Part shown: one piece after another, positions 596-58,500 of the stretch
How the letters are laid out: each line of letters starts with the position of its first letter
Position numbering within the stretch: position 1 is the first letter of the stretch
NCBI GenBank assembly: GCA_045837725.1
Contig: JBEWZL010000091.1
Location: 1 to 64,000 of the forward strand
From: Vermamoeba vermiformis
Taxonomy: Eukaryota
Direction: 5' to 3'
Length of the DNA stretch: 64,000 nucleotides
Notes under the pieces: generated by a model
Told to the model about the DNA's origin: nothing
Database searches by the model: none
The model's input: the letters and a program-made list of their open reading frames with translations, nothing else
Made by a program: the position numbers and the translations under genes

Positions 596-3533
596 ATGGC
601 CAAAGTAGTAAACCTTGGTGCCACATGCTACATTAGCAGTTCTTTACAGCTATTATTTAGTATTGAAGCTTTCCGTGAGCTTGTTATATCATCAAAACCT
701 ACACACAAACTTGCGATTGAATTTCGACAGATTATCACACTTATGAAGAGTAATAAAACAATTCATATCGAACCATTAACAAGGCTATTGAAAATATCAA
801 AAGCAAGCTACCAAAAAGAACACCGTGATTTACAAGAGTTTCTGCTCAATTTATTGGACAAGTTAACTGAAGACTCTGAGTTCAAGCGAATTATAAAGCA
901 AGTTTTTGGTGGTGCCTTACAACGTAATGGTTCAGAATTAATGGAGCCTTTTATAGGTACAAATGACTGCTGCAACTCGACTTAATTTCAATTGACTTTA
1001 TAATTTAGATATTTCAATTCCAGTTGCCCCCGGCAATGTTGTGGACAGTTTAGTTCAACTTTTCAGCAGTGTACGTAACATTTGCATAAGACTTGGATTT
1101 TAACTTATTCAATGATAAGGACTGGGGTTCACACAAATTTTTGACATTCCCCACTGCATTAGTCCTCCACCTTAAGCGTTTTGATAATCTGGGCAACAAG
1201 AATGAAGCGAAGTTTCACTTCAAGTCAACTCTAGTTATTCCAGCAAAGCTCAGTTGTAGTGGTCATGCAGAGACCTACCAACTCAAATCAATAATAGTGC
1301 ACCAAGGAACTGCTAAACAGGGTCACTACGTAACCTACAGCCTTGCGAACAACCAATGGCTTGAACTCAATGATGCAGTCGTCTCAAAGGTAGTCAAAGT
1401 ATGCCATTTTGCAGGTTCTAACCTCAATGTAGGCTCCCAAAGACTTCATGCAGAGGTTATTTGAGGGAATTGCAAGTGCTTATATCTTAGTGTACTGCAC
1501 ACAGCGTATTTCATCCCCAACCAAGTCCAGACCCACACGAATTATTGGAAATGAATCACAGCAATTTAATGATTTTATGGAATGGGACTCAACATCATGT
1601 CAAAGTGATCCAATAGAGATATCAGATAGTGAATATGAAGCAAACGAAAGTGATGATATGAGTGAATCAATTGAAGAAGATAATGAAGAGACATCAGAAG
1701 TCGCAAGTCCTGCAGCAGTGAAAGAAGGTATTGATTTCTCATTCATTAATCATTTTGATAACCATTACTGGCAGCTAAACTTCAAGCAAAACTGTCTGGG
1801 TGGAAAAACGATGGGAGTAAATTCAAGCCCAAAACTTCTCAACCATTGACAAACCCAGGACCAAAGCACCAGCTCATCTTAACAAAAATTAATGCAATAC
1901 GTCATCAACTGGGAAAGCCAAAACTGTCTTCAACACTACGTGTCACAGAGCTTGACTGTTACTTACTTATGATGAATGACATAATTGAACATATTGAAAA
2001 AACAACAGATGCAAATCTGCACATCAAAGCAGTCGATTTGCGCGCTTATCTTGGTGTTAGAATTGCACAACAATTATTGCCAGGTCATTCTGTTGATGAC
2101 TCTTGGGCCTCCTTTTTGCATTCACGCGCCATGTGGGGCAACAGGTGGATTGCTAAAACAATGCTAAAAGATGAATTCAAGTTTATACACCGGAACAAAA
2201 AGTAAGTTCGTTGTTCACTCACTGTAATGGTTCTTACCTTTGGTCTTAGGTATGATGTGTACTTTGTTTGGGCAGCTCTGAATCAAACCTACTCAGAAAT
2301 ATGGGTGCCATTCAGCCACCTTGCTTTAGATGATAAAGCAAATGCTTGGAAAGGAAGGTCAATTTACAAGATTTACAGATTACGCAAGCCATTCCCTTGG
2401 GCAATGTTAGAATATGTCATTATTGATGAAAGTGGATGGATGTCTGGCTTCATTCCTCGATATGGACTGTTTGCTACCATAACAGACAAGTTCAAGAAAT
2501 GGCGAGAGTTATATCACGCCTTCAAAACAGGTCAACTTTCGCAAAGACCTCTACCATTTAAAACAATGTTTCCACGAGCATCAAAGACAAATTTCGATTT
2601 GGAAAAAGCCGTCAGTTTTTTATTGTCAAGACTCCCTGACAAACAAAGGCACGTTTATGACTTTATTAGAGAACCCACAAATTATGAAGAATGGAACAAT
2701 CTGACAACTCGAAACTTATCACACTATCATGTATTTTGTGACAGAGAGTTTTCCTCACTATGGCAGCACCTGCAAAAGCACAATATTGGATACACTGTTG
2801 GCATTATTGGAACATCACACCCTAACCTGTTTCAAAACAACCTTGCTCATTGTTTACAGCCAGGACAATGGCGCAGCTTAACAAACGACTCAGATATCAT
2901 CATGTCATTCTATGACCCTCAAGGCAAGACCTGTCACTGGGCTAGTAATCGAGGAACAGCAGCCTCAATTTCTGAAAAAGTAATTGATGGAAACAAAAAG
3001 AAAAAGCTTGCATACTCTGCTCCCCACTTGGTGCAACAATATCGGACATACTTCAGTTCTGTGGATAAGCATAACTCCAAAGCCAAGAAGTTTAAGTGGC
3101 CCTACCGGATTCGAAAAGTAACAGAGCGCTTAGTATTTGCAGATTGGGAGCGCTCTGCTCAAGTTCAGGCAGAAACACTCTTCAAAAGACTCACCAACAG
3201 TGATATTCCTGCCAAGAAATTTCTTGCCAATTTAGCGCGCTCCCTGGTAGAGGAATTCCAATCAAAAAGGAAACGAAACTACACAATAGAAGCGTTAGAT
3301 CTTGTGCGCGCCAGTGGAAAGCATAATCCATACACCCACACCTGTGCGTACGAATTTGGCAACTCCAAGCGTTGTTTCTTTTGTCAAACTCAAAAGATAT
3401 CTTCTTCTACACTGTAAGTATGTGTAGGTGTACTTTTGTCAAACTAATTAATTGCCTTAGCTACAAGTGCATTCAGTGCAAAGTTGCCTTACACAAGAAG
3501 TGCTGGAAGAAATTCAAAGGTGTAAATCTTTAA
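596..3533 (+). CDS. Fusion protein (~886 aa): N-terminal ubiquitin-specific protease (peptidase C19), acidic linker, piggyBac-like transposase with C-terminal Cys-rich domain
   Basis: GT-AG exons 596-956, 1009-1070, 1120-1398, 1433-1727, 1775-2201, 2250-3413, 3461-3533 join in frame. USP motifs: NLGATCY, DLQEFL..LLD, LVLHLKRF, IIVHQG...GHY, WLELND, AYILVY. piggyBac motifs: LALDD..WKGR..KIY...KP, HVFCDREF, P.LV..Y.....VD, and CFFC...CIQC.VALHKKC. Alternative last intron 3522-3574 would give ...KGHVTRCGVA* ending at 3601. Confidence 0.85.
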
Positions 3534-11172: not shown

Positions 11173-14070
11173 ATGTATAAACTCGTATTATTTGGCGCTC
11201 TTTGCGCGTTCTACCTCGCTGGATCGTGCGTCGCGCAAGTGCCTCAAGTCTGCGTGCAGCCATTTGCCTTTCCTGTTCCAATCTGGCTCGGAGAAAGTAA
11301 GTACTAGAGCGATAAATATTTGTATAATTTCAACTTGTAACGCAAAATGCTCGCTGATTCTTTTTGGATGCAGTTCCGATCTTATTTTCGAACTCACCGT
11401 AATTGCAAAATTGAGAATTCTAGAATACTGATATTTATTTAGATGGTACTGGACCTGCGTGCAGCAAAGGATTTTATTGTCCTTTTATCGTTGAAAGCAA
11501 TAACGCAACTTGGCCATCCGTGTGCCCGCCAACAGTCAATTGCACAGTCACGAGATTATCAGGAAATTTATGCGAAGCTCAAGGACTGTTCGAGCCAATA
11601 GTGTGTCCAGCTGGCTATTACTGCCCTGATTTTAGAACGAAGACGATCTGCCCCGAAGGACATTTCTGTCCTTTAGGAACGGTCGAACCTTATGTCTGTG
11701 AGGCAGTTAGCGAGTGTCCTGAAGGGTCGAGTCAACGGCGATATTGGGGAGCGCTCATTATCATCGCGTGCGTGGATGTGGGTCTTGGCGCACTTCTATT
11801 CGCGTACCTTTTTACTCGTCAAAAGAAGGCACAAGCACATAGCAAGCGATTCAAACTCATTGAACCGAGCGCTGGAGGTGATCACGGCCATACAGAGTCG
11901 TTAGAAACAGTTGTGCAGATGAAGCCAGCTGTTGCAGTCCTCGTCGATGGATTCGCTAGATCTCGCGGAAACTCACCAGCACTCGACATATTCTTTGAAG
12001 ATTTACGACTCACCTTGCCCAAGAAGAACAAGACACTGCTGGCAGGCGTCACTGGCTCGATGAAAGCAGGCAATATGACCGCTATCATGGGCCCGTCAGG
12101 TGCTGGAAAGACGACCTTTATCAGCACTCTGATGGGCAAAGTGAACGCGTCCTGGGACAGATCTGGCACGTTGAGTATCAACGGCGTCGAGACCACGTGC
12201 TCGGCTATCAAATCATCGATCGGATATGTCCCGCAAGAAGACATCATGCACCGCGAACTGACGGTCTGGCAGAACATTTGTTACTCTGCTGACACTCGTC
12301 TGCCGCCTAGTTGGACACGAGAGGAGCGTTATGCATACTGTGAAAGGTAAGCCCTGATCATATCGAATGTTTGGCCGAAAAATCCTTGTTTCAAAGAAAC
12401 CAGATCCGATTGATTTGATTTCTCGCTTAATTTTCTTTGAACCGTTAATTATGCACATCAAACCAAATAATTATTTCTATATATGGAATAATGTATTATT
12501 ATCTAAATGTCATTAATTTAAAACGCATCTGGCTTTTAGCTCGTTGTCTAACTTTTATTGTTACAGTATCTTGGAAGTGCTCAATCTTCAGTCAGTCAAA
12601 TATCAGCGCATTGGCAATGAAGAAAAGAGAGGCATTAGCGGTGGTCAACGAAAGAGAGTCAACATTGCGATCGAACTCGCAGCAGCACCCTTGATCTTGT
12701 TTTTGGACGAACCAACTACCGGTCTCGACGCATCAGCGGCGCTAGAAGTCTGCGAGATTTTGAATAAGATTGTCAAGCTGACTAATATCAACGTGGCTGT
12801 CGTTATTCATCAACCGAGAATTGAGATCTGGAACTCGTTGGACAATCTTTTGATCTTGGCACCAGGCGGCAGAACGGTCTATTTAGGACCTCAAAAATAC
12901 GTTCAAGAATATTTCTCAAAGCATCTCGGTCTTCAATTCCAAACTTTTGAAAATCCAGCGGATACGTTAATGGATGCGATCTCAATCAACGGCTCTGCCT
13001 ACGCTGACAAATGGAAAGATGACGGCAGCACTCTCTTATCGCAAATGATCAATAAGAAAGTACCGCCACCAGTTCCACCTCGCCAGAACAAGAGATTCAG
13101 CAAAACAGTCGAAGTTTTTGACGCTTATGCAGTGAACCACGGCTACAATTATCAATTTGAAGAACGAACAGACACACAAGAGATGCATGTTAATATAGAG
13201 ACGCATATAGGAGACTACAGCAACTTCAGTTTGACAGCGATCTCGAAGAGATCTGGCGCGACGTGGATCCGTCAATTGTTGCTCAGTCACGTCCGTTCAG
13301 TGAAACAACAAGCCGTCAACTACCAATCACTATTGATCGAGATGGCACTCTCGACACTTGCAGGCATTTTGATCGGAATGTCAAACACAGACACGTACAA
13401 AGGCGTGTTGAAAGGCAACTACGTGCTCATCTCACCGACACCAGCAGAATTCGTTATTCCGCTCAAAGGCCTCTTTATCAACCTTGCTATTGGTCTCGCG
13501 GCTTCAGCAGCAGGCGTGCGAACCTTCGGCGATGAACGCGTGATTTATTTCCGCGAAACAGCGTCTGGCCATTCACCGTCCGCGTACTACTTGGGCGTGT
13601 CACTGTCAGTCTTGTATCGCATCTTCATCATGGCACTTCACTTTGCCGTGCTATTCTACGTCGTTGGCATGCCCATGGCGTCGCTAGGCCACATCTACGC
13701 GATTTGTTTTGGTGTCTATTTTGCCGTGTACGGACTCGGTGCCATCATCTCAATGATTTTCAAACGCGAAGACGCACCGTTGACAGCTGTCATTGCGACA
13801 CTTGTAGCAGCGATCATGTCGGGATTCATCAACGTGTTTCCGCTCGGTCTCAAAGCAGTCTCATACGCGTTTTGGAGTGGCGAAGCATTTTACTCGGGTG
13901 AAGTCAAGCCATTCAGCAACATTTACGACCTGAGTGTGGCAAAAGATGTGTGGGACTACGATCTCGAGCGATTTGACGGTGATATTGTGGCAGTCGTGTT
14001 TTATGGTGTGGCTTATCGAATGATTGCGTACGTGTTGATGATCATGCTCAACAGAGACAAGCAAAAATAA
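11173..14070 (+). CDS. ABCG-family half transporter with signal peptide and Cys-rich extracellular N-terminus (ADP1/plant ABCG24-28-like architecture)
   Basis: ATG 11173 signal peptide; C..G.YCP repeats; TM helix; Walker A GPSGAGKTT; signature ISGGQRKR; LDEPT; IHQPR; C-terminal multi-TM domain. Confidence 0.92.
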
Positions 14071-14109: not shown

Positions 14110-16583
14110 TTACATTTTTTTCAACATGTTAAGGCACTCTTGAATTGTTGGTCGTTGTTCTGGTTCTGTTTTGCAACACATCATGATCAACTCACAAAGC
14201 TGATCATCAGCCACATTATCCCTGATCCTCTTCATTCGTTTACTTTCATCTCCAATAATTGGCAGAACTGTATTTGTGCACATTTCATAGAGCAGCACTC
14301 CAAATCTAATTAAACTTGTAAGGACTGTAACAGTGAATGATACTACATACGAATATATATCAGCACTTTGATTGTAGGGTTCCTCAGCAAGTATTTCAGG
14401 TGCCATAAAGTAGTTAGTGCCAGCAACAGTGTTAGCAAGTGATCTTTCATTCAAAAATCGTGAGTGACCAAAATCAGCTATCTTTGCCAGTGTTTTTCCA
14501 TTAAAAAGCTGTAATGGATTAATTGAATTGTTTAATTCAAAAATTTGACATACCAAAACATTTGCACTTTTAAGATCACGGTGTAGAACATGTAGTCTAT
14601 GAAGGTATGCTAGTCCAGAAGCAACATCACAAGCATAAGATAGGATGTCCTTGCAAGGTAGCTTGACCTTTTGTTTGTGAAGGATGTCATACAGTGAGCC
14701 ACCATCAGCATACTCCATGATCAATGAAATTTCAATATCTTTGCCAGTACACAATCCAAATGGAGTTATTATGTTGTCATGACAAAACTTCCTATAGAGT
14801 GAGTTAGTTACAGCAAGAAGTGCTAAATTACTCACATTAATGTCATCACTTCACCAACAAATTTATCATCATCAAGTGCAATTGGTCTCTTTAGAGCTAC
14901 TTGTTTCCCATTCCAATCAGCCAAATGAACTTCACCAAATCCACCTTTGCCAAGCAGTTTGCTAACTTTAATATCTTTGTGTGGAATTCCTTTAATTATT
15001 TCATCTCTTATTCTCTCTTTTTCTGTTAACCACTCTTTGTTATCTGGCTTTAATTCATAAAATAAGCTGAAGTCAATGTAAGCTTTGTGTACCATATTCA
15101 ATGCATTATGGACTCTAGCACGTATTAATATAGTAAATTCATCGTTTGGTTCAAGTTGATCAGCTCTATTCAGATCCTCCAATGCTCCTTTGTAATTGTC
15201 AAGCATTTGCTTTGTTGCTCCTCTACATTGTAGTGTAAATGCATTATTTGGTTGAAGTTGATCAGCTCTGTTCAGGTCATCCAGTGCTCCTTTGTAATCA
15301 CCAAGCAATCGTTTTGTTTCTCCTCTACATTTTAATGTAATTGCATCATTTGGTTCAAGTTGATCAGCTCTGTTAAAATCATCCATTGCTCCATTGAAAT
15401 CACCAAGTAATCGTTTTGTATCTCCTCTATATTGTAGTGTAAATGCATTGTTTGGCTCCAGTTGATCAGCTCTGTTCAGATCATCCAATGCTCCTTTGTA
15501 ATCACCAAGCATTCGTTTTGTATCTCCTCTATATTGTAGTGTAAATGCATTATTTGGTTCAAGTTGATCAGCTCTGTTAAAATCTTCCAATGCTCCTTTG
15601 TAATTATAAACCATTATTTTTGTTGCTCCGCTCTGTTGTAGTGTAAATGCATTATTTGGTTCAAGTTGATCAGCTCTGTTCAGATCATCCAATGCTCCTT
15701 TGTAATCACCAAGCATTTGTTTTGTATCTCCTCTATATCGTAGTGTAAATGCATTATTTGGTTCAAGTTGATCAGCTCTGTTAAAATCTTCCAATGCTCC
15801 TTTGTAATCATCAAGCATTCGTTTTGTATCTCCTCTATGTCGTAGAGTAAGTGCATTATTTGGTTCAAGTTGATTGGCTCTATTAAAATCCTCCAATGCT
15901 CCTTTGTAATCACCAAGCATTTGTTTTGTTACTCCTCTATATTGTAGTGTAAATGCATTATTTGGTTCAAGTTGATCAGCTCTGTTCAAATCTTCCAATG
16001 CTCCTTTGTAATCATCAAGTAATCGTTTTGTATCTCCTCTCTGACATAGTGTAAATGCATTATTTGGTTCAAGTTGATCAGCTCTGTTCACATCCTCTAA
16101 TGCTCCTTTGTAATCATCAAGCAATCGTTTTGTCACTCCTCTTAATTTAAGTGTAACTCCATCATTTGGTTCAAGTTGATCAGCTCTGTTAAAATCCTCC
16201 AATGCACCAGGGTAATTTTTAACCACTAGCTTCAAGACCCCTCGCATGGTTAGCATCCCTGGATCATTAGGGTCTAATTGAGATGTTCTATCAAAATCTA
16301 CTCTGGCTCCATCATAGTCGTTCATCACTCGCTTCACATCCGCACGACATGAAAGAGTGAACACATCGTTAGGGCACAATTCATCAGCTCTGTTGAGGTC
16401 TGATAGTGCTCCATTCAAATCACGCAATATCCTCTTTGTGTTTCCTCGCCACTTGAGAATGTTAGCGTTGTTGGGATCGAGTGCGCTGGCCTGTTCAAAA
16501 ACTTCTAGTGCCTGACCGAATTCTTCCGCTTCGTATTTTTGAATTCCAAGCTCCAACAAATCAGTAATGCTAATTTTCTCCAT
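14110..16583 (-). CDS. TPR-repeat array + TKL-type protein kinase
   Basis: About 15 34-aa TPRs, then GKGGFG, VALK, HRDLKSAN, DFG, APE. Short introns only in the kinase part. Confidence 0.95.
15130..16215 (-). repeat. Coding tandem array of ~10-11 near-identical 102-bp units (TPR)
   Basis: TTTGGTTCAAGTTGATCAGCTCTGTT...AATGCTCCTTTGTAATC recurs every 102 bp. Confidence 0.97.
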
Positions 16584-16933
16584 TATTACTTGATTTTAAC
16601 GTTTCTGCAATCCGGTTTTTGGCCAAAGATCCAAATTACCAAGATCTTTGAATAAAAGTAATTAATACATTTTCCGTGGCTAAAAAAATTAGAATAGGAA
16701 TAATTCGGTATACTGGCTATAATTTTAACATACAAGCACAAGAAAATAAACCGAATTAATTTTGGATCATAACGTCAAAGTCAATTATTACTCACCCCAG
16801 CGATAACGAAAAAAAGGATTGTATCTTTCGAACTGAAATTTATTGCGAGGTGTCGGTGTGGTTGTGGCGTGCTTATGAACATTAAAAGAAACAAAAATCT
16901 TTACACGTCTCGTACCCAACGTCAAATACCACA

Positions 16934-36000: not shown

Positions 36001-39000
36001 CACGAACATGACTTCGGTGAAGTTAGACGCTGCAAGCACGAAGTTCTTGGACAAGAAAGCGCCGGATCCACTGTAGTTGGCGAAGTCAGCCCAGAATGCA
36101 TTGATGGGAATCAAGCTGTTGTCTTGACGGCTGATTGGCAGCTTGTAATAGTTGTTTTCAGCGTACTCCTTGGTCTTGTCGAGCACCTTGTAGAATTGTT
36201 GCTGTTGTTGACGTTCCTCAAGGTAATCATCATCCTCTTCACCTTCAGAGTAAGCGGCTTCTTCCTTTTCCATTTCCATTTCATCCATGTCCATGCTCAT
36301 GTCCGCAGCATACGCCATTTTAGACGATGGCGCAAAATCAGCCATTTCATAAGCCATCTGTCTCATCATGGCACCAGGAGGTGGAGCTGGGGCAGCCATG
36401 GAAGCCATAATAGGAGCTGGCATCAGGTTCATCATCTCAGGCTCTGCCATGACTCGCGCTTCTTTTTTCTTAGCAACCTTCTCCTTCACTGCAAGAAGTA
36501 ATTGTTAGAATTTTCGAACGCGTTTAAGATCCTTTCAAACGTACTCGCGTAGGCCTTTTCGCGCGCTTGTTCCAGACCCAAGCTATCTTCAGCTTCAAAT
36601 GCCTTGCCCTTCAAAGCCTTTAACCAAAGTTAGTGACTTGAGGAGAATATATATTACCGCCACCACTTACAGCTTTAAAGCAAGCTTCCATTTGAATACT
36701 TTCATCGATAATGCTGACGACGCTTTCGTACAAGTTCTTGGCGAAATCTCCGATGCTGCTAGTAACCAAGCTCTTCGAGCTCTTGCTCTTCTTAGGCTTG
36801 TCTTTGGTGCTGCCGGTGGCTATAATGTAGGCATTAATAAGAGTTGCAAGTCGATTATTGGTGGAAATACTTACCAACAGCTCCAATCTTGTGGTACAAC
36901 AAGATTTGCTCGACAATATTCAAACGAGAGAATCTCCAAGGCTCAACGAATGAAGACAAATCTTCGTCCAACAAGTAGTAATCCATGAAGGTCTTGTCCT
37001 TCTTGTTGGCCAAGTAAGGCTTGACAATCTTGTCGAAGAAGGCACGGTCCTTCTTGTAAATGAAGAAATGCAACTCGTGGCAAGCGAATTCGTTGTACTT
37101 CTCTTTCTTCTCGTCTTCGCTGAGCTCGAGCCACTTCAACACAAAGTTGAACTCCTTGAGGGTGGTTTGAGTGCTGCCGTCGCTCAATGTCACCAACAAG
37201 TTGAAAGCCTTTTCGAGGCTGTCGTAAAACTCAAAGGAGGAAGTGGTGATGTCGGCAATAGTGAACTTGGTGCCAGATTGAATAGGCGTGATCTGGGGTT
37301 GCTCGGTGTAGTGGTCATTAGCGTGCAAAGCGTTGCGGGTAGCCAAGCGCAAGTCCTTGAACTTGGGGTTGGCCTCGTGCTTCAAATCGTGACGGCGGTA
37401 GACGCAAGCAGTGAGATCAATAGCCACGACAGTGAGCATGGCAGGTTGATTCTTGAATGCATCACGCTTGATGTTGATGACACCATCCTTGTCAGCCTTC
37501 AAGTTCAACAACAAAGTTGTCGGAGTGCTCATGAAGTCCAGTGAGGATTTGCCAGGGCTGGCAGAGGCGCCACCACCATAGTCGGCCTACATTTAAGTTA
37601 GAGAATGACAATAATTAAACTCTAAACTTACTCTACGGGAGCGAGAGGCCCCACTAAGTGCTTTTGCGGAAACGTCACGAGCCAAGCCGTATTCGCCACC
37701 AAGAGCAGCGGTTTGGGTGCCAGTCTCGGTAGTCTTGACAGCCCAAGGGTTCAACAGCAATTGAGGGCGGTGCAAGTTGTTTCCAGGGTAGACCTTGGCA
37801 CGCTTACGCTCCAAGATGTACTTGTACTCGTCACCAAGAGCACGGCCTTCAACAAACAAGCAAGGGAAGCGAACAAACTTGGACTCCTCATTGGGCTCAA
37901 GTATTGAACCCGCAAAGGATTGGTAGGCACTGTAGATTGGGGCGAAATAAGTGGCAAACACGTGCACACGAGTGTTCTTGGTGTCGTTCTCGAGCTTGAT
38001 GGTGACAACGTCGTCCTTCTCCTTGATGCTAGAGATGTGCAACATCTTCTTGTTCTTGACGGGCAAGAAGCGAGTACTGCCCAGAATGTGACCATGGACT
38101 TCTTCACCTTCAGTCACTCGGATAGTGATGACAGAGTATCCGTGAGCTTTGTCGTACAACTGGTAGTTTCCAGCTAGCAACTTCTTCACGGCAAGCATGC
38201 CATCTTCAAGAACCAAATGCTTGAAGCAGTCACGCAAAGGTACTCCACGACGCATTTCGTAGAGAGCCCATTCGGTACGCTTGACCTCAGTCTCGGTGCC
38301 CAAATAAGGAATGCGCACGCTGCGACCAACCTTGGCATGGATAGTTCTGGGGACAGCGCTCAAGGCAGCATCAGTGAGTGTCCATTGACGATTGCTGTAT
38401 TGAATGTAGTCAATGTCCTTCAGTTGTCCCAACTTGACGACACCATGCTTGTCAGTTTGGAGATAAGAGTTGATAGTCGAGCTCAGGTGCTTGTGCTTGA
38501 ATGTCAAGTACAATTGCTTTCCTGGACGAGGCTCGCCAGTCTTGCCGAGAACCATCAATTGATAGCCAGTCTTGCTCCACTGCAAGAAGTAATCTTCCAA
38601 TTCAGAGGTATTGTCGATCTGGTTCAAGTCGAACGACTTGGCAACGTTGAAGTTTTGATACTCGCCGTTGCTGATGGCCTTAACTTTGCAAGTCAGGGTG
38701 AAGCGAATGTTGCGCAAGTTGTCAGGGACCTTGAACTCAAAAGTGGAGTCTTTGTCCGCGTAGAGCTTGAAGTCTCTGACGTCCTTAGTAGTTTGAACAG
38801 ACTCGTGGTCAGTGGAGACCAATGACAAGACGACGTCTTCCAAGATCTCGAATGAAGCAGGGAGGCCGTTGAGGAAGAACTGAGGGCGAACAATAACTTG
38901 AGTCTTCTCACCCTTGATCAAGGATTCGCGGTCGACGTAGATGGAGGCGTCGAACGAGTACTCTTCGCGTTGGTGATGGAAAGTAGACAAAGCAGCAAAG

Positions 39001-41609
39001 TCATCCTGAATCAGCAAGATCTTCTCGGTAACCACGCTGTTGGTGTAAGGTATGATGATTTCACCGTCTTTGTTTTGATTGAACACGTGACCTTTCAACC
39101 AAATGGAAGCACCCTAAAACAGAAATTAGTGACACGATCGGGGGAGTGATTGTGTAAAAAGGCTTACCTCCACTTTCTTGCGGTGCTCGTCCAAAACAAT
39201 GAAAGAGTGGCCAGCAATAGTGTTCTTTTCCAAGTAGCTGAACTGACCCTTTCGGATGAGAGCGCGGCTGCTCTTACCGTTACCGATGAACTGAACAAGA
39301 ACACGTTAGAACAAAGGCCACTAGTGCTAGTAAGGAGCTACGTACTTCAACAACGAAGACACCACGTTTGTTGAGGTTAGGGAAAGCAATCTTGCGCAGA
39401 GAACGAACGATGGGTGCGTCCTTGTACTCGAAGACCATTTCTTCGTTAGGCACTAAGCCGTCCAAGTTGATCTTGGTGTTGATCTCGCTCAAGTTCTCGC
39501 GGTAGTAGCTCATAGTGTTGATCTCAAAGATTTTGACGATCAAAGTTGAGACGTTCTTGACGTAGACATCCAACTCGACGGGATCAGCAGAGTTGAAGAA
39601 AAGCCTATTTTATGCGCGTTAGTAGGTGATCTATTGTTGAATTGGTATGGCGTACTTGTTTCGAGGAGAGAATTCGATGTCAACACGTTCCTTGAGATCC
39701 TTCAACGTGTACTGATCGAGATTCGCAGCCCACTTGTCGGAGTCAGCGGCACCGCTCAAAAGCTTAACTTTGGAATGAGCGGCCTTCAAGTAGTCGTCAC
39801 TATTTAGCAAAAACATTAGGCTTGTGAGCTACACCTTCAAATTTCAGTGCCGAATCTACTCACCGGATGAATTGACTGAAAGGCTTGAAGTTGTCTCTAT
39901 TGACCAAAAAGTGCGACAAATAGTCATTAACGAGCTTTTCATCATCGCCAGCACTCAAGTTGGGCAAAGGAGCAGGCATGCTACGGAAGTTACCGTAGTG
40001 CTCGCTCTTTTGCTTGTTGCGCCAATCGTAGTCATAATAGCCAGCGTGCTTAGGGATCTCAAGGTACTTTAAGAACCTGCAAATGTACGTTAGAACATTG
40101 TTGCTCTCGAACTTCAAAAAAGGCATCCTTACTTGTCTTCGTTGTAGATTCCCTCTTCAGCATCCATTTTCAGGTCGAGGTACATGGCAGTGACCTTGAA
40201 GGAGTTATGAGCAGCTGAGAGCTTGCTAGTGAACGCCAAGATGCGGCCAATATACTCTCGCGCCTCTTTGCGATCACCATACTTGAAGTCATCCCAGCTG
40301 TTCAGATGCAAGTCGTCAGAGGGAGCCAGACGAGCAATCACGCGCTAACATAATGAATTGGGTTAAAAACGTATTTAAGTGCCGATTAATAATGAATTAC
40401 CTCAATGTAGGTGCTGTTATCGATCAAATCAGGTCGCTTGGCACGCAACTCTTCGAGCTGTTCCAAAGTCATTTTGTTGTGCAAGCCGGTGCCAAAACTG
40501 GAAATGAACATTAGTTTTATGTAATAGGTACGCCCATATGCGTGTACCTTTGTGAGGGATACTCCTTGGTATCAAGCATCTTAGCAACAAGCTCGGGGAT
40601 CTGCTCGAGATCAGGGGTCTCCAAGCTGTTCAGAATTTGCTGGAGCTGTAGTGGCAATTAGATCGAATATTTATGCAATCAAAAAACAGTGACCAGTTTA
40701 TGATTGGAATAAGACTTACAGTTTCTTTGTTGATCTTTGAGTAATCGATGGCACGTGCGGCAATATCCATTGCTTGTTTGTTCTGAAACTAATTAATACG
40801 CTGAATGATATGATTGCATAGTATGCTTACAGCGAGCTTATTGAAAAAATAGCGGTCGTGCTTCTCCTTCTCGACGATCTTCGAGAAATCGATCAAATTC
40901 TGATCAAGCTCAGAAGGGTATTTGGCTTCAGTGTTGCCTCCGGGGAGTTCTCTGTATACGTGTTAATAATTTTGCACTCCTTAGTTTGATAAGATCAATG
41001 ATGATTGCGAGTAAATGACGAAGATTTTCTTCCGTGGCTAAGGCTCGATCATGAAAATGACCGTTACAGAAATTCGATTTGAGGACTTACTGCGAGTGAT
41101 AGAAACCGGCGCCCGATTTTGACTTGAGCCAATCAATGGCGGCTTGAGTATCCTTGGAATAGTCATATTGTTGCAATTTGAACCTTTTGTGAAAATATTT
41201 AGCTGCGATCTGGTTTTTTCATTGTTTTTGCACTATTTACCTATGCTCCATCTCGGAGTGCAAAGAGCCATAATTATATCTAATTTTCTAAATTTATTTG
41301 GAAAGTTAGAACGCATCTTCAGATCTTAATTAGTATTTACCTCTAGAAGTTGCTCGATGTCCTTATGATTTTTACCATCAAAGTTATTGTTTATCAAATG
41401 AAGGAGCTTCAAGCGATAAAACTCTTGAGTTTCAGGAACGAGAGTTTTGAGCACATCCTCTCGGTTCTCAGCTAGAGCAAAATCTTCGTTCACACTTACA
41501 CTAATAAATACAAATTATTAATAAATACATCGCGGGAAGGTTGTTTTAAGAGGGTGGATAAATATCTACGCAAATCCCAGCGAAACAACCAATCCAATGC
41601 ATACCTCAT
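33059..41609 (-). CDS. Very large (~2,000+ aa) multi-exon protein of an uncharacterised family, possibly macroglobulin-like
   Basis: Continuous spliced frame from MSVSVNEDFALAENREDVLKTLVPETQEFY to YVKVYSQ...FYKDGYTDLKGRFDY...FSILVMS..GAVIRDANPPKV*. Strong C/G-ending codon bias (AAG, TTC, TAC, AAC). Confidence 0.85.
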
Positions 41610-48094: not shown

Positions 48095-51000
48095 TTACGA
48101 GAACAAGTCAATCAAGTCATCGGCAGTCAGCTTGGTGGAGATTTCGGACTTGCGCAGAGCTCCTTCAGCGAGCTTTCTCTTCTTTTCTTGCAGCGCGAGA
48201 ATGCGGTCTTCGACAGAGTTTTGTATGGTGAATCGGATCACGTGCACAGGTTTGGTTTGGCCGACACGATGCACACGGTCAATGGCTTGTTCTTCAGCTG
48301 CTGGATTCCACCAAGGATCCAACAGGAATACGTTGTTAGCTTCAATCAAGTTCAAACCAAGACCTCCTGCCTTCAGAGACATGAGCAGAATGGTGATGTC
48401 CTCTTTCTCTTTAAAGGCGTCAATTTGTTGTTTGCGCTTTTGAATATTCATCGAGCCGTCCAAGCGAGAGAATGTCCAACCATGCTCTTTGAGCGGGTAT
48501 TCAATCAAGTCTAACATGCTCGTCCATTGGCTGAAAATAATGGACTTGCACTTGGGATCTTTTTCTTTAACTTTCTTTAGCTCTTCCAACAACGCTTTGA
48601 CCTTTGTGCTCGATTTAATGGCTCGTCCAGGCATTACGTTGAAAGATCCGATATCAATGTCCAAGTTGTTTGATTTGACGACGTAAGGCTTCATCGAATC
48701 CTCCTTCTGCGGAACAGTTAATTTCACGAAGCAAGAGAGCGTACAATTACTTACCAAATCAGCATTGCACACAGGACAAGCAAAACTAGCAGTGCCCTTT
48801 TCGATCTTAATTTGATTGGTGTTGTTTGCCGTTGCATCGGACTTTGGGTCGTCATCAGTCTTCTTCGTCTTGACGCACGACTTGCAGAACACGTGCTTGC
48901 ATGAACTGATGACGGGGTCTTCAAGTACGTCATTGCAAACTGGGCACACCGTCACTGCACTCTCTTTGGAGTCGTCTTTCTTGGTTTCAGCTTCTTTTTC
49001 TTGGGGTTTATCGTCCTTGCTCTTCTCATCTTTCTTCTCATCACTGTCGTTGTTGTTGCTTGACTTCTCGGGCGTCGTATCTTTCTTGCCTTTCATCTTG
49101 CTTCCTTTCTCGGTTGTCTTTTTGTTCTTGCTTGCGCGCGTTGTGACTTTAGTCTTCTTTTCCTCGACATTACCAAGGAGCACTTGTCCTTTGACTGCTA
49201 AATAGGGGTGATCGCAGGCTTGACGTAGCCTCAGCAACAGCACCAAGATGTGCGTGTAGTTTTGAATAATAGTGCCTGACTTGACATAGTCATCGAATTC
49301 GACTTTGGACTTGGCATACATGGCTTGATAAATATCGTCCTCCTGCAACAGCGAAGTTAGTGTCTTGTTTTGGAAGGTCGTGATTTATGTTACTAGTCGT
49401 ACCTCTTTAGAGAAGGCATCGGCTCTAAGGATGACGTTTCGTTCAGGAAGTGTTAGGATTGGTTTGCCATCAATTTCCATGTCCTTAGTTCGGCAGATCA
49501 AAATTGGATGCAAAATCGATTGAAGCAAAGCAAATCCCTTTTGAGTCAATCTGTCGGCAATAGATGACTTCCAGAACGAGTAGTCAGCGTAGGGACTGTA
49601 CTGCAAGAACTTCAACAAGCTGTACAAGTCGTCCAAGCTGTTTTGGATGGGAGTGCCCGTCATAGCCCATCTTTTCTTGGCATCGAGAGCGCAACACGCA
49701 CGTGCTTGACGCGTCGCTCTGTTTTTGATAGAGTGCGCTTCGTCTAAAACAACGCGGTACCATTTGACTTTCTGTGAAGGACCAAGCGGATCCGTTTCCA
49801 CTAAGGCAATGAATTAGCAACTGATTAATAGTTAGCCTAAAATATACCTTTGGGGTACTCGCTCGCAATTGTAGCATACGTGCTGATAACAACATCGTAT
49901 TCTGCGAGTTCTTTTGCACTCTTTGAGCGTGTTTGTCCGTGGTGAATTCTCACTTTGCTGTGAGGGTTGACGTTAGCATGTTTGGACTTGATGTTTGAGG
50001 TACTTACAAAAGACCATCAGCGGACTTGGTGGTAATTTCTTTGTACCACTGACTGACGCAAGACAACGGGCAGATAATGAGCGTAGCTTTGCGTTTGGGG
50101 TCTGGTTGTTTGGCTTTCGATTTTCCTTTGACACGCTCGGCTTCAGCAGCGGGAGTATTGTGGATGATGCACGAGAGCATTTCACTGGAAGAGTCGTTAG
50201 TTATCCTGAAGGACCAGACCATAAGAAATAACATACATAGTTTTGCCCAAACCCATTTGGTCCGCAACAATGCCACCAGCAGGCTCCATGCCCTCTCGCT
50301 TCGTCATCCACGCAAGCGCTTGTTTCTGGTACTTGAACAGCGGAACTTTAAGATCTTTCGGCGTATCGAGTTCGTCTTTGAGTTCTTTTGGACTCTGCAA
50401 GATCTTATTGACGAGGGACTGCACTGGTTGGGAGGTGTATTGCGGTTGTGCATCAATGCGAAGAGGAGCTTCGGGTTTGTTGGAAATGCTCGGTACTGCG
50501 TGCACATTGTTAGATTGACTCCACTGAGAACGAAAACGACTTACGGTCGGGAGTGTGAGTCAGCAGATCAGTTGTAAGTCCAGACATCATCGTTGAAGAC
50601 AAGATTGACGAGATGGAATCAATGCTCGGCAACTCTCCCGAGGCTGTCGAGTTCGGTGAATTACCAAACGAAGTTGTGGACATAAGTGGCTTGGACCCTA
50701 GATCGTGCCATCGTTAGCAAAAAAGAAAGTAATCCTTGGGCTAACGTACGTTTTGAATCTTGTGCTGCGATAAAAGAGGCCCAGTCTGTCTTGAACGGAT
50801 TTTCGTTGCCAGTAGTTTCAGTAAACGCTGAAACAGAATTAAGTTAGTTTAACGAAGCTGCACAGGTTCGCATCATACGTTTCTTTACGGGTATACTATG
50901 ACCACTGCCGATATTGAGTTCAATGTGCCTTGGCGGCGCTGGATCCAACTGAACGAGACCTTAGCGCCAAATGCCTTATAGAATTAGTACTTACGAATGG

Positions 51001-52664
51001 TGCAAACAATTCTTTCATCACGGGGTCGGTAGCCTTGCTCGGGTCAAATGTTGGCATGATACCAGAGAGCTGTGCAGCCCCGACCAGTGGAGGCTTTGGC
51101 TGTGAAGTAGGCAGAGGGTACGGCAACGTAACCACAACCTTTGGAGGTCGAGGAGGCTCGGGCTTGATAGGAACTGTAGGAGGCGTCGTGGCCTGTTGTT
51201 GAGAAGCAGTGTCTAGTGAAGAGATTGTCTGCGTGTTATTCAGAACTTGTTTGAGCATCTCATCGGTCTCCATCATCGACTTGCGAATACGCTCGACAAA
51301 ATCTTCGTCTTCAGCTTCAGTCGCATTCAGCTTCTCTGCAATCTTGCGCAACTCTTCTGCTGACACTTCTCGTTTAATGACTCCGTCGACCTTCTGTTTC
51401 TTGGCGGCTGGTTCTTCGTCTTGAGAATCAATAATTTCTTCCACCTTCCGCTTTTGTCCAGTCAACGTTCCATTTTCAGCCATGTCGTTGTCAACGATAA
51501 CCACCTCGTCATCGCTCGTGTGATTGAGAGTGCTCGATTGAGGGACTTGTGTTTGTTCATCGTTCACCAAGTCCAGCAACTCTTCCATGAGCTGACTCTC
51601 GTTTTGTTGGGAGAACTGTTCTTGACTCTGCTCCACGGAGAATTCATTGCCTTTCAACGCCTCGAGAGCCAACAGCAGCTTGCGTCGCAATTCAGGATCG
51701 TTTATTTGAAGTACTGACTCGAGGTCATCTTCAGATAAGCTTTCCAATATCTCGCCATCAATGCCTTCCTCTTCAAGGTTCTTTTTGTAATCTTTAGCAT
51801 CAGGAAAGTTCATCTCGAACCAAGCAGTGACCTCATCGACACTCCAATCTGACAGTGGTTTCTTTGGCTGCAGGGACTTGTTAGATAAACGTAAATCACC
51901 TCACTGACTCACTTTCTGCATTGATTCGTTCAAAATTTCAATTTCTGGTTCAACTTCTTCGTGGTCGACGACAACACGGGGGGACGCTATGTCTAAAATA
52001 AAAATGAATAAACTCGGCTAACAACCGTAGGTAGTGTACCTTTCGGATTAATGAACGTGTACACCAGATCCGAAGCTGGATTGTGTACTGGGGCACCAAC
52101 TTCATGATTTACCACGCCACCGAACACAATGATATCATTATGCCTAAAATACGATATCAGTATTTGATACAAAGCAGAAAGCAGTGACGTACTTCAATAT
52201 AGCTTCTTTGACGCGAATTCCATTTACAGCTAGACCGTTCAAACTGTTGTTGTCGGTAAGTTTGTATTGAATATTATCACCATCTTCGATGCGTTCGATA
52301 ATAGCGTGGACTCGCGATATCAATTTTGGCATTTTCGGAGAATCAAGTACGCTGGCCGGATGTCAGTAATCTATTGACGAATAGTGCAATACAGATGCTT
52401 ACATATCGCTAGCTTGTGACAATCTACCAAGTTTGAGCGTTTTTGGTTGCAAATTTATAACCGCAGGCGTATTAGGGCTGGATCGAGGAATTAATATTAG
52501 AATATTTTATTTTATTTGTATTTAGCTAAAATAACCATTGTAAAATATTGCCAGAGTTTTATAATAATTTTAACGATTATTCAGTATTTAATTTTGACTT
52601 ACCCCGCGATCTGAGGGTCAACCAGCTGTAAAAAGGCAAAACTATTATCGTGTGGCGAGTTCAT
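48095..52664 (-). CDS. FHA + SAM + SNF2-family helicase with RING finger (Rad5/Rad16-like)
   Basis: FHA: LGR...ISRVHA...SLNGL.VNG. SAM: WSVDEVTAWF...EEGIDG..L. Helicase: ADQMGLGKT, LDEAH.IKN, TGTPIQN, LLRLRQAC.HP, FSQW, GGLGLNL, WWNP..EEQA.DR.HR.GQ. C3HC4 RING inside the helicase. Confidence 0.93.
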
Positions 52665-55548: not shown

Positions 55549-58500
55549 ATGGCCAGCGAAAAGAATGTAAATAGTACGGACGCTAAAGGCGGAGAGGATT
55601 TGCCCGTGGATGTTTCCAATCAAAGGCTCACAAAATTGCCGAATTGGGTCTACAACTCGCATGCCCTGTCCATGCTGAATGCGAAGAATAACAAGTTAGC
55701 TAGACTAGGCAAAAAAATATTCAAATTAACGCGACTGACGCACTTGAACTTGCGTAACAATAATTTGAAGAAGTTGACGCGAGGAAATAGACTGGGTATC
55801 GAGAAGTTAACGTCACTACGGTATTTGGATCTGGGTCAAAATCAACTATCTAGATTACCAGTATCTATAGCGCAATTGGCCCGATTAGATTCTCTCAGTA
55901 TTGATCACAATCATTTAACACAGGTACGGCGCCGAGATCTCGCTGAGTAAATTACGATATTAATAACGGTATTTTTATAGCTTCCTCGAGAGATGGCCAC
56001 AGGGTTATCTAGACTACAGATACTTCATTTGGATTACAACAACATCGGCCCTACTTTGTTCAGTGCGACCAAAGCACGTGAATCTTTTGACGGAGATGAC
56101 AGTTCGGAAGAAGACGAAGAAGAGCCGATGCCAAATCAAACTATTATAACCGCAAATGGAGAGGCGTTTGATATTAGCACGAGCTGGAGTTCAACTCTGA
56201 AGCATCTAAGCGTTTCTTGGAACAGGCTAGTCGAATGCCCGGATGGCTTGGCACGTTTGGCGAGCTTGACTTACTTAGATCTCAGTCACAACCAATTGCG
56301 AGAGCTGCCTGACGACATTGGAAACTTGAGTCTCCTCCACACTCTAATCGCGAGCAGTAATCCGATCGAAACGCTTCCCTCGACCCTTCACAAGTTACAC
56401 AATTCATTGCACACGCTGCACTTGGACTACAATAGGCTTCAGTTCATACCTCCTCAAGTTTATCAACTTACTAAGCTTGCCGAATTGAAACTGAACAACA
56501 ACTTGATCGCTGAAATTGGTCACAACATTTCGCAACTGACGTCATTGAAGGTGCTGCATTTGAATGACAATAGAGTGCGCTACATCCCATTTGAACTCAC
56601 AACGCTACCCGTGGTTCAAAGCGCAGTAGTCGACGTCTCAACAGGCATTCCGCTGACAGATATCAATCAACACGATATTCACAGCATTTTGTCGATGTCT
56701 GAGGAGACTCTGAGTCATAGCAACGAAGCAACTTTTGCCGTGCATCTCGAAGGCAATCCTCTGGAAGACCAAATCCCGCGCGAAGTTCTTAAGCTCGGCA
56801 ATGCTGCTGTGATCTCATTCGTGCGATCAATCAATCAATCCAAAGCAAAGTGGCGCCGTGTCAAGCTGATGTTTGTTGGAGAGGAGAACGTAGGAAAGTC
56901 GACCTTGTTACGTATCTTGACCAGCAAGTTCTCGTCGGATTCTGCGGCCTCCAATTCAGCACAAGGAACAGGCTCCGAGCCTTCGATTTCCAATACTGTA
57001 TCGGTGCTCAACTTACTAGGCTCGTCATCTGCTCCCAGCATACCCGTATCACTAAGTGCTGAGGTACCTACTCCACGTGACTTGAATAAGAAAGCTACAG
57101 TGCGAGACCTTGGCAATTCAGCGGAGAAAAACAAAGCAACTGACGGAATCAAGATTTACGATTGGTTGCCTGAGATGGACGAAGACATAACGAGCACGTT
57201 ATCGCCCGAACAGATGGAAGACCTCAGCAAATATCCGTTGGTTTATTCTTGTTGGGACTTTGCTGGACAGGATGTGTATGTATTTTGATTATTGTTACAG
57301 CAATACGTTTACTAATAATACAAACAGGTACTACCCGACGCATCAATTTTTTTTGAGCGGCCGTTGCATCACATTGCTGATGTTCAACTTGACCGATGTT
57401 AAAGGATCTCGCATCGAGTACTGGTTGAAGGCGATTAAACAACGAGCTGGTGTTGGAGTGGGAGCTCCTGCTTGTCTATTAGTGGGTACTCACCGCGATG
57501 ACAAAAGAGTTGCTGACGAGCGCATTTGGACCGACACTTTGGCCAAGCTGAAGCAGAAATATCAAAGCAAATTCCCGTTCATTAAGGGCTACTTCGCTAT
57601 CAGTTGCAAGAGCTTCAAAGGCATTCGAGAGTTGAAGAACAAAGTCCTCGACTTGACGCTCAGCTCTCGTGTTATGTCACAGCAAGACGTGCCACTTGGT
57701 TGGGTCATGCTTGTCGATCACATCAAGCGAAAGAGACAACAAGAGCAAATAATTAACGTGGCACAATTCGCTCAGTTCGCACGATCATGTGCCGGTGTGG
57801 AAGTACCAGATATTCCGACGTTGGTACGATTCTACAACTCTGTTGGTATTCTGTCATTTTTCGATGACACTAGCGACGACGCGCAATTTTTGAAGTTCAT
57901 CAATATCAACAAACAGCCCAGCAAGAGCACCATGTTAAACGAGTTGGTCATTTTAAATCCTCAATGGATCGCCGATTTGATGTCGACTATCATCACAATC
58001 AAGCACTCGTTTGCAAAGGACGGTGTGTTGATGGAGTCAGATCTGCCTCAGATATGGCGAGACTATCCCACGGCCATGTACGATGCACTGTTGAACCTGC
58101 TGGAGAAGTTCGAAGTGGCTTACAGACTAAGAAATTCCAATTTGATTGTCTCACCTGCTATTACTTTCTTGGCGAAGCTACCAATGCGCTACGAACGAAT
58201 CAAACGCAAGAACAGACCTGGACGTAGCAACACTGTGTTTGCACTCAATTATCAAGACCCAGAAGTACCGGATTCAACAGAAGATATGACCGGTGGACGC
58301 GAGAGAAGTGGCACTGTCATCGTTCATGATTCATTGCCGCCATTTGATATGAGTGCCCTGGAGAGCCCGCCAATCAATGACATTACTAACTCGGTCACGA
58401 AATCTCCTCGGGATAGTCCACTTCGAGAGGCAAGAGATGACGCGGGGTTGAAGAAAGCAACGAAAGGCAGCGCTGCAGTTACACGCACGGATCGAAGCAA

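Follow-up and report, generated by a model that had tools for sequence, protein, structure and literature searches.

A tetratricopeptide-repeat kinase gene of Vermamoeba vermiformis with homogenised repeats whose variation is concentrated at presumed ligand-contact positions

The window analysed here comprises 64,000 nucleotides (nt) of Vermamoeba vermiformis (assembly GCA_045837725.1, contig JBEWZL010000091.1, positions 1 to 64,000) and carries on its minus strand, at 14110 to 16583, a gene for a protein of 779 amino acids (aa) in which 15 tetratricopeptide repeats (TPRs) and a capping helix precede a TKL-type protein kinase. Ten of the repeats appear to be young copies of a single 102-bp unit, and their differences are concentrated at six helix-A positions that contact the ligand in the TPR protein HOP and at which nonsynonymous exchanges are in excess. 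We therefore consider the TPR array to be a candidate binding module under diversification, a reading to which we assign roughly an even chance; this estimate and those for two further readings discussed below, i.e. drift at exposed positions and a fixed substrate-selecting arm, refer to explanations that overlap in part. The parts of the gene are as follows.

14110 to 16583, minus strand: whole gene with 4 exons and a coding sequence of 2340 nt (779 aa), encoding 15 TPRs, the capping helix and the TKL-type kinase.
14836 to 16583, minus strand: exon 1 with all TPRs, the capping helix and the start of the kinase N-lobe (GKGGFG, VALK).
16161 to 16568, minus strand: TPR units 0 to 3 (aa 6 to 141), old and diverged, as judged from the partners of units 1 and 2 in the homologue P0001 and from the synonymous divergence (dS) to the core units.
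15141 to 16160, minus strand: ten homogenised 102-bp TPR units 4 to 13 (aa 142 to 481) with a variable groove face, according to Tandem Repeats Finder, the per-codon table and the ratio of nonsynonymous (dN) to synonymous divergence.
14997 to 15140, minus strand: diverged terminal TPR unit 14 and capping helix (aa 482 to 529), according to the last P0001 unit and the predicted structure.
14792 to 14835, minus strand: intron 1, 44 nt, GT..AG, from a spliced transcript contig.
14554 to 14791, minus strand: exon 2, kinase subdomains through HRDLKSANVLL (PF07714, E 2e-19).
14509 to 14553, minus strand: putative intron 2, 45 nt, GT..AG, from the continuity of frame and motifs and the colinearity with P0001.
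14351 to 14508, minus strand: exon 3, DFG to APE segment (PF00069, E 7.9e-12).
14306 to 14350, minus strand: putative intron 3, 45 nt, GT..AG, the removal of which brings back the motif D-I-Y-S-F-G of kinase subdomain IX, found likewise in P0001.
14110 to 14305, minus strand: exon 4, end of the kinase C-lobe and stop codon (PF07714, E 2.3e-5), with a C-terminus resembling P0001 and P0013.

A frame of 587 codons (14832 to 16595) overlaps one of 246 codons (14110 to 14850) at a GT..AG intron, and removal of the three GT..AG introns (44, 45 and 45 nt) yields the product of 779 aa, which starts with the ATG at 16583 to 16581 and ends with the stop codon at 14112 to 14110. Splicing of intron 1 is confirmed by a transcript contig of 195 letters from run X5, in which 14617 to 14790 is joined to 14835 to 14855 with 44 nt skipped and 0 other differences. 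The spliced product is colinear over all three junctions with P0001, a protein of 614 aa from a eukaryotic transcriptome set and the closest database homologue. We conclude that the gene is real and expressed. In run X2, DNA contigs of similar depth run through from the gene into the adjacent ABC gene, and the locus is therefore not a chimeric join.

Exon 1 matched the Pfam models TPR_2 (E 4.5e-44) and TPR_1 (E 1.4e-43), and exons 2 to 4 matched PK_Tyr_Ser-Thr and Pkinase (PF07714/PF00069). The kinase motifs are intact (GKGGFG at residue 545, VALK at 562, HRD at 653, DFG at 674, APE at 698). The highest hydropathy over 19 residues (1.22) lies within the kinase and the N-terminus is non-hydrophobic, and by these two measures neither a signal peptide nor a membrane segment was seen in the protein of 779 aa. 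Because of the kept motifs, the low hydropathy and the non-hydrophobic N-terminus, it is a fair inference that the protein is a soluble, probably cytosolic and apparently active kinase; the initial annotation, which had proposed a cytosolic TPR array coupled directly to a kinase, agrees with this reading of the sequence. It had also likened the protein to fungal NLR-like receptors. NACHT and NB-ARC are absent from the Pfam matches of every exon, and the 779 residues are wholly accounted for by TPRs, capping helix and kinase. Since a nucleotide-binding domain is absent, the gene is not a member of the NLR family, and the likeness is reduced to an analogy.

Tandem Repeats Finder reported a single array at 15133 to 16205 (period 102, 10.5 copies, 86% matches, 0% indels), and the protein register gives 15 TPR units, of which units 4 to 13 are the homogenised ones (core units). 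As all 15 repeats lie within exon 1, which has 1748 nt, the units are intron-free, and the 10 to 11 nearly identical, intron-free units of 102 bp that had been noticed at first were thus recovered. All ten core units keep the small or helix-breaking residues of the TPR signature (G8, A20, A27 and P32), and the canonical W4/L7/Y11 is replaced by L4/R7/K11. With phmmer, about 300 residues could be aligned gaplessly and in register with engineered consensus TPR proteins (best PDB sequence match 9qhb, E 2.6e-41), and at this level the repeat register is confirmed as the canonical TPR register.

Over the 45 pairs of core units the mean identity is 86% in DNA and 76% in protein. The dS among core units is 0.23, against saturated values of 2.1 to 2.7 between the core and the gene's own units 1, 2 and 14, with unit 3 being intermediate (0.70). 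The internal similarity Psim, which we calculated ourselves and not with T-REKS itself, is 0.844 for all ten units, 0.853 for units 5 to 13 (306 aa) and 0.912 for units 6 to 8. In PMC4986451, the repeats of fungal NLRs count as highly internally conserved (HIC) when their T-REKS similarity to the consensus is 0.85 or higher over a stretch of 100 aa or more. This cut-off is marginally reached by units 5 to 13, so that the high internal conservation claimed initially holds for these units, but not for all ten, which stay below 0.85. P0001 has only ten TPRs, of which units 1, 2 and 9 pair with units 1, 2 and 14 of the window gene (68, 59 and 53% identity); in the unit tree, the pair formed by unit 1 and its P0001 partner has a support of 96/97, and that of unit 14 with the last P0001 unit 99/98. 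The central units of the window gene match P0001 units 3 to 5 about equally well and have no one-to-one partners.

For the analysis of variation between core units, the contact set was fixed a priori and not from the data as positions 2, 5, 6, 9, 12 and 13, which contact the ligand in TPR1 and TPR2A of HOP according to the available part of Magliery and Regan (2005, PMC1261162). The earlier proposal that the variable helix-A positions are ligand-contact positions is thereby consistent with HOP. The entropy is highest at position 6 (2.12 bits), followed by 5 and 9 (1.76 each), 2, 15 and 24 (1.36 each), 12 (1.30), and 13 and 22 (0.97 each). The ten residue strings listed in the initial annotation (KL/V/RL to QC/A/QM) are exactly those of units 4 to 13 at positions 5, 6 / 9 / 12, 13. 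Its statement that change falls mostly on these five positions is right, as they hold 7.91 of 18.16 bits, but positions 2, 15, 22 and 24 also vary. The observation as a whole is thus confirmed. The six contact positions, i.e. 18% of the unit, contain 9.27 of the 18.16 bits (51% of the amino-acid entropy), a value matched by 16 of 1,344,904 six-position sets and, among the 26 non-signature positions, by 7 of 230,230. Mean protein identity is correspondingly 34% over the contact positions versus 85% over the 28 others. The exposed non-signature positions 18, 21 to 23, 25, 26, 28, 29, 31, 33 and 34 are nearly invariant in the core units (position 22 at 0.97 bits), whereas 33 and 34 rank among the most variable positions in TPRs at large, as far as the available part of PMC1261162 goes. 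The distinguishing trait of the array is this contrast between a variable groove and other exposed positions, 33 and 34 included, that are nearly fixed.

Nei-Gojobori estimates over the 45 unit pairs resulted in a dN of 0.489 and a dS of 0.325 for the contact set, compared to 0.069 and 0.218 for the other 28 codons, and the minimum state counts of nonsynonymous to synonymous changes are 16:2 in the contact set versus 15:15 elsewhere (Fisher p 0.011). We also applied a codon-likelihood model written for this analysis, which uses shared synonymous branch lengths and a separate dN/dS ratio (omega) per site class. Omega for contact set and rest was 2.11 and 0.18 on the nucleotide maximum-likelihood (ML) tree, 2.28 and 0.14 on the tree from the 28 other codons, and 1.84 and 0.17 on a star tree. 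Equality of omega in the two classes was rejected with p 1e-14 (nucleotide ML tree only). An omega of 1 at the contact set was rejected with p 0.031 (nucleotide ML tree), 0.0095 (28-codon tree) and 0.049 (star tree), which is only nominally significant. The four-gamete test found 28 of 45 informative site pairs to be incompatible (13 of 15 outside the contact codons), and the core units are mosaic, with segments exchanged between units; a PHI-like test (pairwise homoplasy index) for distance-dependent incompatibility gave p 0.99. Regarding per-codon dN/dS, which had been proposed as a check, the nonsynonymous excess is present (omega of about 2 versus about 0.15), but the excess over 1 is nominal and is accompanied by these incompatible site pairs. 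Relative to the consensus, no mutation bias of the type caused by repeat-induced point mutation (RIP) was seen (22 GC-to-AT versus 40 AT-to-GC changes, 41 transitions versus 46 transversions).

Several points weigh against diversification. The omega above 1 comes from 10 units of 34 codons and the assumption of a single tree, with p 0.049 on the most conservative topology; as the units are mosaic, no single tree is right and the test is weakened, and the available part of PMC4986451 names recombination as a known source of false positives in such selection tests. Higher variability at groove positions is a general rule for TPRs in the accessible text of PMC1261162, and of the 120 listed matches, 94 have five or more units in register, 93 of which hold more than the chance share of 6/34 at the six contact positions (range 0.19 to 0.43; the exception is P0088 with 0.09). 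A variable groove is therefore a common feature of TPRs, much of the pattern is accounted for by relaxed constraint, and variability in the groove does not by itself support a diversifying receptor. In the protein unit tree, the core units of the window gene never form one clade (0% of bootstrap trees; 34 columns), and as the centre of this tree is not resolved, a lineage-specific amplification is based on the DNA evidence and not on the tree. The family consensus is moreover conserved across taxa, with 29 of 34 residues in common with the P0013 consensus and 23 to 26 of 34 with Sphagnum-type proteins, so that the sameness of the protein scaffold is partly owed to purifying selection and not to homogenisation alone. 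Finally, of two RNA runs carrying this species label, one yielded 2 reads and the other 0, which is uninformative on expression either way.

Another explanation takes the protein to be an ordinary signalling kinase whose TPR scaffold was amplified recently. After the tandem duplication, purifying selection would have continued to act on the scaffold, while the exposed helix-A positions would drift (omega about 1), with neither diversifying selection nor a receptor repertoire; we regard it as possible, if rather doubtful. Besides the generic groove variability, the Nei-Gojobori ratio at the contact set is just 1.5 when its own synonymous sites are used (3.2 per pair), the p-values of the likelihood-ratio tests are marginal under a model violated by mosaicism, and proteins with TPRs and a TKL kinase are catalogued as plain signalling proteins, e.g. 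in the Phytophthora infestans kinome (PMC3019232, in the part available). Drift is less easily reconciled with point estimates of omega above 1 at the contact set on 3 of 3 topologies (1.84 to 2.28), with the near-invariance of the other exposed non-signature positions in the comparison with PMC1261162, and with the contact codons themselves, since in several of them (e.g. those of positions 5 and 6) units are two or three bases apart.

A wrong copy number or unit order, arising as an assembly artefact, appears very improbable. The short-read contigs of run X2 do break within the array, 27 of the 54 placed records have two possible positions, and two X2 contigs run into unlike sequence at 15692 and 16052. 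The array is, on the other hand, an uninterrupted open frame without indels in which every unit is distinct, and the X2 contig pieces (those listed) match the window without differences where they were placed.

One of the two diverging X2 contigs follows a unit as far as 15692, beyond which come 255 letters of unlike sequence; the first 30 of these, in a hand reading on the gene strand, encode TPR positions 11 to 20 in frame, with K11, L14, D16, Y17, G19 and A20 kept and positions 12, 13, 15 and 18 differing. This suggests that the contig stems from a paralogue or from an allele carrying another unit. The second contig leaves the array at 16052.

The exon-1 protein was modelled with AlphaFold2 (AF2) using an alignment of 57 sequences (A1), resulting in a model with a pLDDT of 93.3, a pTM of 0.80 and 30 TPR helices, i.e. 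15 pairs. In the model, helix A spans TPR positions 1 to 13 and helix B 17 to 30, and the C-terminal part is predicted to consist of helices 482 to 494 and 498 to 511, the capping helix 516 to 529 and the three first kinase strands, so that the array abuts the kinase with the capping helix as the sole separator. The six contact positions all fall in helix A and are spaced as a single stripe; we infer that they face the lumen of the superhelix from the register of the consensus TPR proteins to which the array was aligned and from PMC1261162, not from model coordinates. The best Foldseek match was the TPR superhelix of O-GlcNAc transferase (7yeh with a query TM-score, TMq, of 0.61; 1w3b with TMq 0.52 and a target TM-score, TMt, of 0.73), followed by SPINDLY, BBS4, subunits of the APC and consensus TPR superhelices.

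This resemblance favours another explanation, in which the array is a fixed substrate-selecting arm as in O-GlcNAc transferase or SPINDLY (SPY), the lumen of which holds particular endogenous proteins and the repeat differences of which are conserved within the species. The superhelices of the two closest solved folds lie, as here, directly N-terminal to a catalytic domain, only the capping helix stands between array and kinase, and the end repeats are conserved with P0001. A fixed groove would not, though, predict that P0001 has 10 and not 15 repeats and that the centre is without one-to-one partners, and the youth of the core units (dS 0.23) and their mosaic nature argue for turnover. The TPR lumen of O-GlcNAc transferase carries an asparagine ladder; no helix-A position of the core units holds an invariant asparagine. 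Taken together, we find such an arm unlikely.

For the candidate binding module under diversification, we propose a soluble single-chain binder-plus-kinase, in which a superhelix of 15 TPRs, shaped like the TPR domain of O-GlcNAc transferase and capped, is joined directly to an apparently active TKL-group kinase. The repeats at the start of the array and the one at its end are old, with orthologues in P0001. The ten central repeats are young copies of a single 102-bp unit, which would have arisen by tandem amplification and later have exchanged segments among themselves. The scaffold of each repeat would be under purifying selection, and six presumably lumen-facing helix-A residues per repeat would outpace synonymous sites. 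Because these residues appear to change faster than synonymous sites, the lumen would be a binding surface under diversification, where a protein or peptide partner may switch the kinase on or may be presented to it as a substrate. This partner may be foreign, as in immune sensing, or endogenous.

The exon-1 query retrieved 1484 proteins at E <= 0.001 among 7999 candidates, the best of which was 50% identical; the full protein of the window gene itself is absent from the protein collection searched. TPR-plus-kinase proteins with related units occur among the listed matches in transcriptome sets, metagenomes and mosses (Sphagnum fallax, S. tenellum, S. balticum, S. magellanicum and Ceratodon purpureus), and a relative from Gigaspora rosea has the kinase first and the TPRs after it. 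A mean pairwise unit identity of at least 0.65 was found in 13 of the 94 homologues, mostly of the Sphagnum type (0.65 to 0.80 in those labelled Sphagnum) and including the Gigaspora protein. The unit type also occurs with other output domains. The metagenome contig L001 encodes at 49 to 1467 on its plus strand three TPRs, behind which a PARP catalytic domain and a SAM domain take the place of the kinase; its two full units are 77 to 80% identical in DNA to the core units of the window gene (dS 0.4 to 0.7) and are far closer to them than the window gene's own end units. Related TPR arrays with a TIR (P0120), CHAT (P0116) or trypsin-like (P0017) domain matched exon 1 with E 1e-96 to 1.9e-49; these three and P0057, with a weak AAA_16 domain, are 29 to 37% identical over 59 to 68% of the exon-1 query. 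Given this re-use of the unit type in relatives with different outputs, the array behaves like a recognition module that can be transferred between proteins.

Regarding the array, four proteins labelled Sphagnum (P0006, P0027, P0028 and P0053) and the look-alikes P0016, P0023 and P0032 form a sizeable set in which TPRs are combined with a kinase of the receptor-like kinase (RLK) type; their arrays are as homogenised as that of the window gene (pairwise unit identity 0.65 to 0.80) and vary at positions 5, 6, 9, 12 and 13. No description of this Sphagnum-type TPR-RLK set was found by keyword in the open-access literature searched. A link to giant viruses was considered and rejected, as two scans of viral contigs (one with a single protein, one with the unit alignment A2) gave no relative.

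When the P0001 kinase region was used as query, only P0121, P0122 and P0123 reached 46 to 50% identity among the matches listed; the others were at 43% or lower, none covering at least 80% of the query was above 38%, and the best named matches were at 38% or lower. P0013 has C-terminal kinase features in common with the window gene and P0001. The window gene, P0001, P0013 and P0121 to P0123 form a small kinase clade with varied partner modules, i.e. TPRs (window gene, P0001 and P0013), a concanavalin-like domain (P0121) and C-terminal homogenised TPR-like repeats (P0123). Using the P0121 kinase, which is 50% identical to the P0001 kinase, as a stand-in for the window kinase, the best PDB matches were CERK1, CTR1, DLK/MLK, ZAK, TAK1, IRAK4 and LRRK2, mixed with tyrosine kinases. 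The C-terminal TPR-like repeats of P0123 have about 41 residues and are, by eye, nearly identical among themselves.

Among known systems, the fungal NLR-like (STAND) proteins with HIC-type TPR, ANK or WD repeats, such as Podospora HET-D, HET-E and NWD, are close to the window gene. As described by Dyrka et al. (2014, PMC4986451) and Paoletti et al. (2007, PMC1805685), their repeats evolve in concert, are shuffled and are under positive selection at the interaction surface, which in TPRs is the concave side. The window gene resembles them in its DNA-similar tandem repeats with variation on the binding face, in the signs of unit exchange, in point estimates of omega above 1 at few positions and in a Psim of 0.85 reached by units 5 to 13. 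Unlike the fungal proteins, which carry NACHT or NB-ARC, it has the repeats joined straight onto a kinase; its internal conservation is marginal (0.844 for ten units), it lacks a RIP-like bias, and its host does not appear to be a dikaryan fungus. The fungal proteins are further marked by repeat-number polymorphism and exchange between loci.

The NB-ARC-TPR, LRR-ROCO and LRR-kinase candidates (LRR, leucine-rich repeat) of the brown alga Ectocarpus, as presented in the available part of Zambounis et al. (2012, PMC3341825), likewise belong to a host that is neither animal nor plant, with apparently diversifying repeats and signalling domains that include kinases. There, each repeat has its own exon, exon shuffling is the source of diversity and the TPRs follow the NB-ARC domain, whereas the 15 repeats of the window gene lie in one exon. 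TPR-TKL and TPR-RLK kinases (P. infestans PITG_16204, from the part of PMC3019232 available, with eight TPRs C-terminal to its TKL kinase; Sphagnum, Ceratodon, Gigaspora) also consist of a TPR array plus a kinase, but their kinase domains are not orthologous to that of the window gene, and the TPRs are C-terminal in PITG_16204 and in the Gigaspora protein P0101. The Sphagnum-type proteins come close in the array itself, through the consensus residues mentioned above and several equally homogenised arrays with a pairwise identity of 0.69 to 0.80. O-GlcNAc transferase and SPINDLY have a long N-terminal TPR superhelix right before the catalytic domain and are the best structural match (TMq 0.52 to 0.61), but they are glycosyltransferases and not kinases, their identity to the array is 16 to 20%, and their repeats are not young copies but old ones, each conserved in its own right. 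Engineered consensus TPR proteins (CTPR; 9qhb, 8bu0 and 1na0) are the closest solved sequences and form superhelices of identical repeats; they are artificial and carry W4/L7/Y11, while the window gene encodes a natural array with L4/R7/K11.

Repeat arrays with a constant scaffold and a diversifying face are a hallmark of fungal allorecognition and NLR genes, and for brown algae, arrays of this kind have been suggested to form receptor repertoires. The window gene is a marginal but clean case of this pattern outside the NLR architecture, wired to a kinase and with look-alikes among moss and arbuscular-mycorrhizal kinases. If the diversification is true, such recognition modules would be more portable and more widespread than an NLR-centred view implies, and the gene would lend itself to straightforward tests, as a single soluble protein with an enzymatic activity to read out. 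Otherwise it calls for caution, since recent TPR amplification alone would then yield an NLR-like picture. A bolder proposal, which we put forward as a long shot, would see in the protein a one-chain innate sensor without a NOD domain, in which a TPR array evolving like fungal NLR repeats, by amplification, exchange and positive selection in the groove, directly gates a TKL kinase; it would be one of a toolkit spread across protists, mosses and Glomeromycota, with portable units on kinase, PARP-SAM, TIR, CHAT and protease domains. Keyword searches of open-access text, exclusive of supplementary tables, found no NOD-less TPR-kinase with HIC-type repeats; table S2 of PMC4986451 lists HIC repeats outside NLRs.

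Compared to its neighbours at 11424 to 14067, 37593 to 39113, 48095 to 49384 and 55981 to 59488, the TPR-kinase gene is a compositional outlier. Its GC content at third codon positions (GC3) is 0.25 (0.165 in the core units) versus 0.49 to 0.61 in six neighbouring coding stretches of five genes, and its introns have 44 to 45 nt versus about 75 to 230 nt in three neighbour introns read by eye. The low GC3 and the short introns may reflect a foreign origin, a special gene class or a mutation bias. A compositionally foreign, possibly horizontally moving gene set, with repeat dynamics that stem from this origin and not from host immunity, would fit these values, as well as the GC3 of 0.23 in L001 with its nearly identical units and different output domain, and the presence of a piggyBac-like open reading frame within the window. 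We nevertheless judge it quite improbable, as the gene has three spliceosomal introns, one of them proven to be spliced, the X2 DNA contigs join it to its ABC neighbour at similar depth, the two viral-contig scans gave no relative, and the neighbour introns used for comparison were read without RNA support.

The piggyBac-like frame lies at 2206 to 3417 (plus strand) and matches a DDE transposase of this type (PF13843, E 3.8e-11); its GC3 of 0.39 is also below that of the neighbours. A second repeat-plus-kinase gene in the window is of the ROCO type (55981 to 61199, plus strand), with LRRs at 55981 to 57288, COR-A at 57191 to 59488 and a TKL-type kinase at 60096 to 61199. Two frames on the minus strand, one with a RING finger and a helicase-C domain (48095 to 49384) and one with a SAM domain (50920 to 51900), are ordinary neighbours that show no apparent connection with the TPR-kinase gene. 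The neighbouring ABC gene has a counterpart of 90% identity in P0241, from a presumed sister species, and its best named matches are from an aphelid and chytrids, with 35 to 41% identity.

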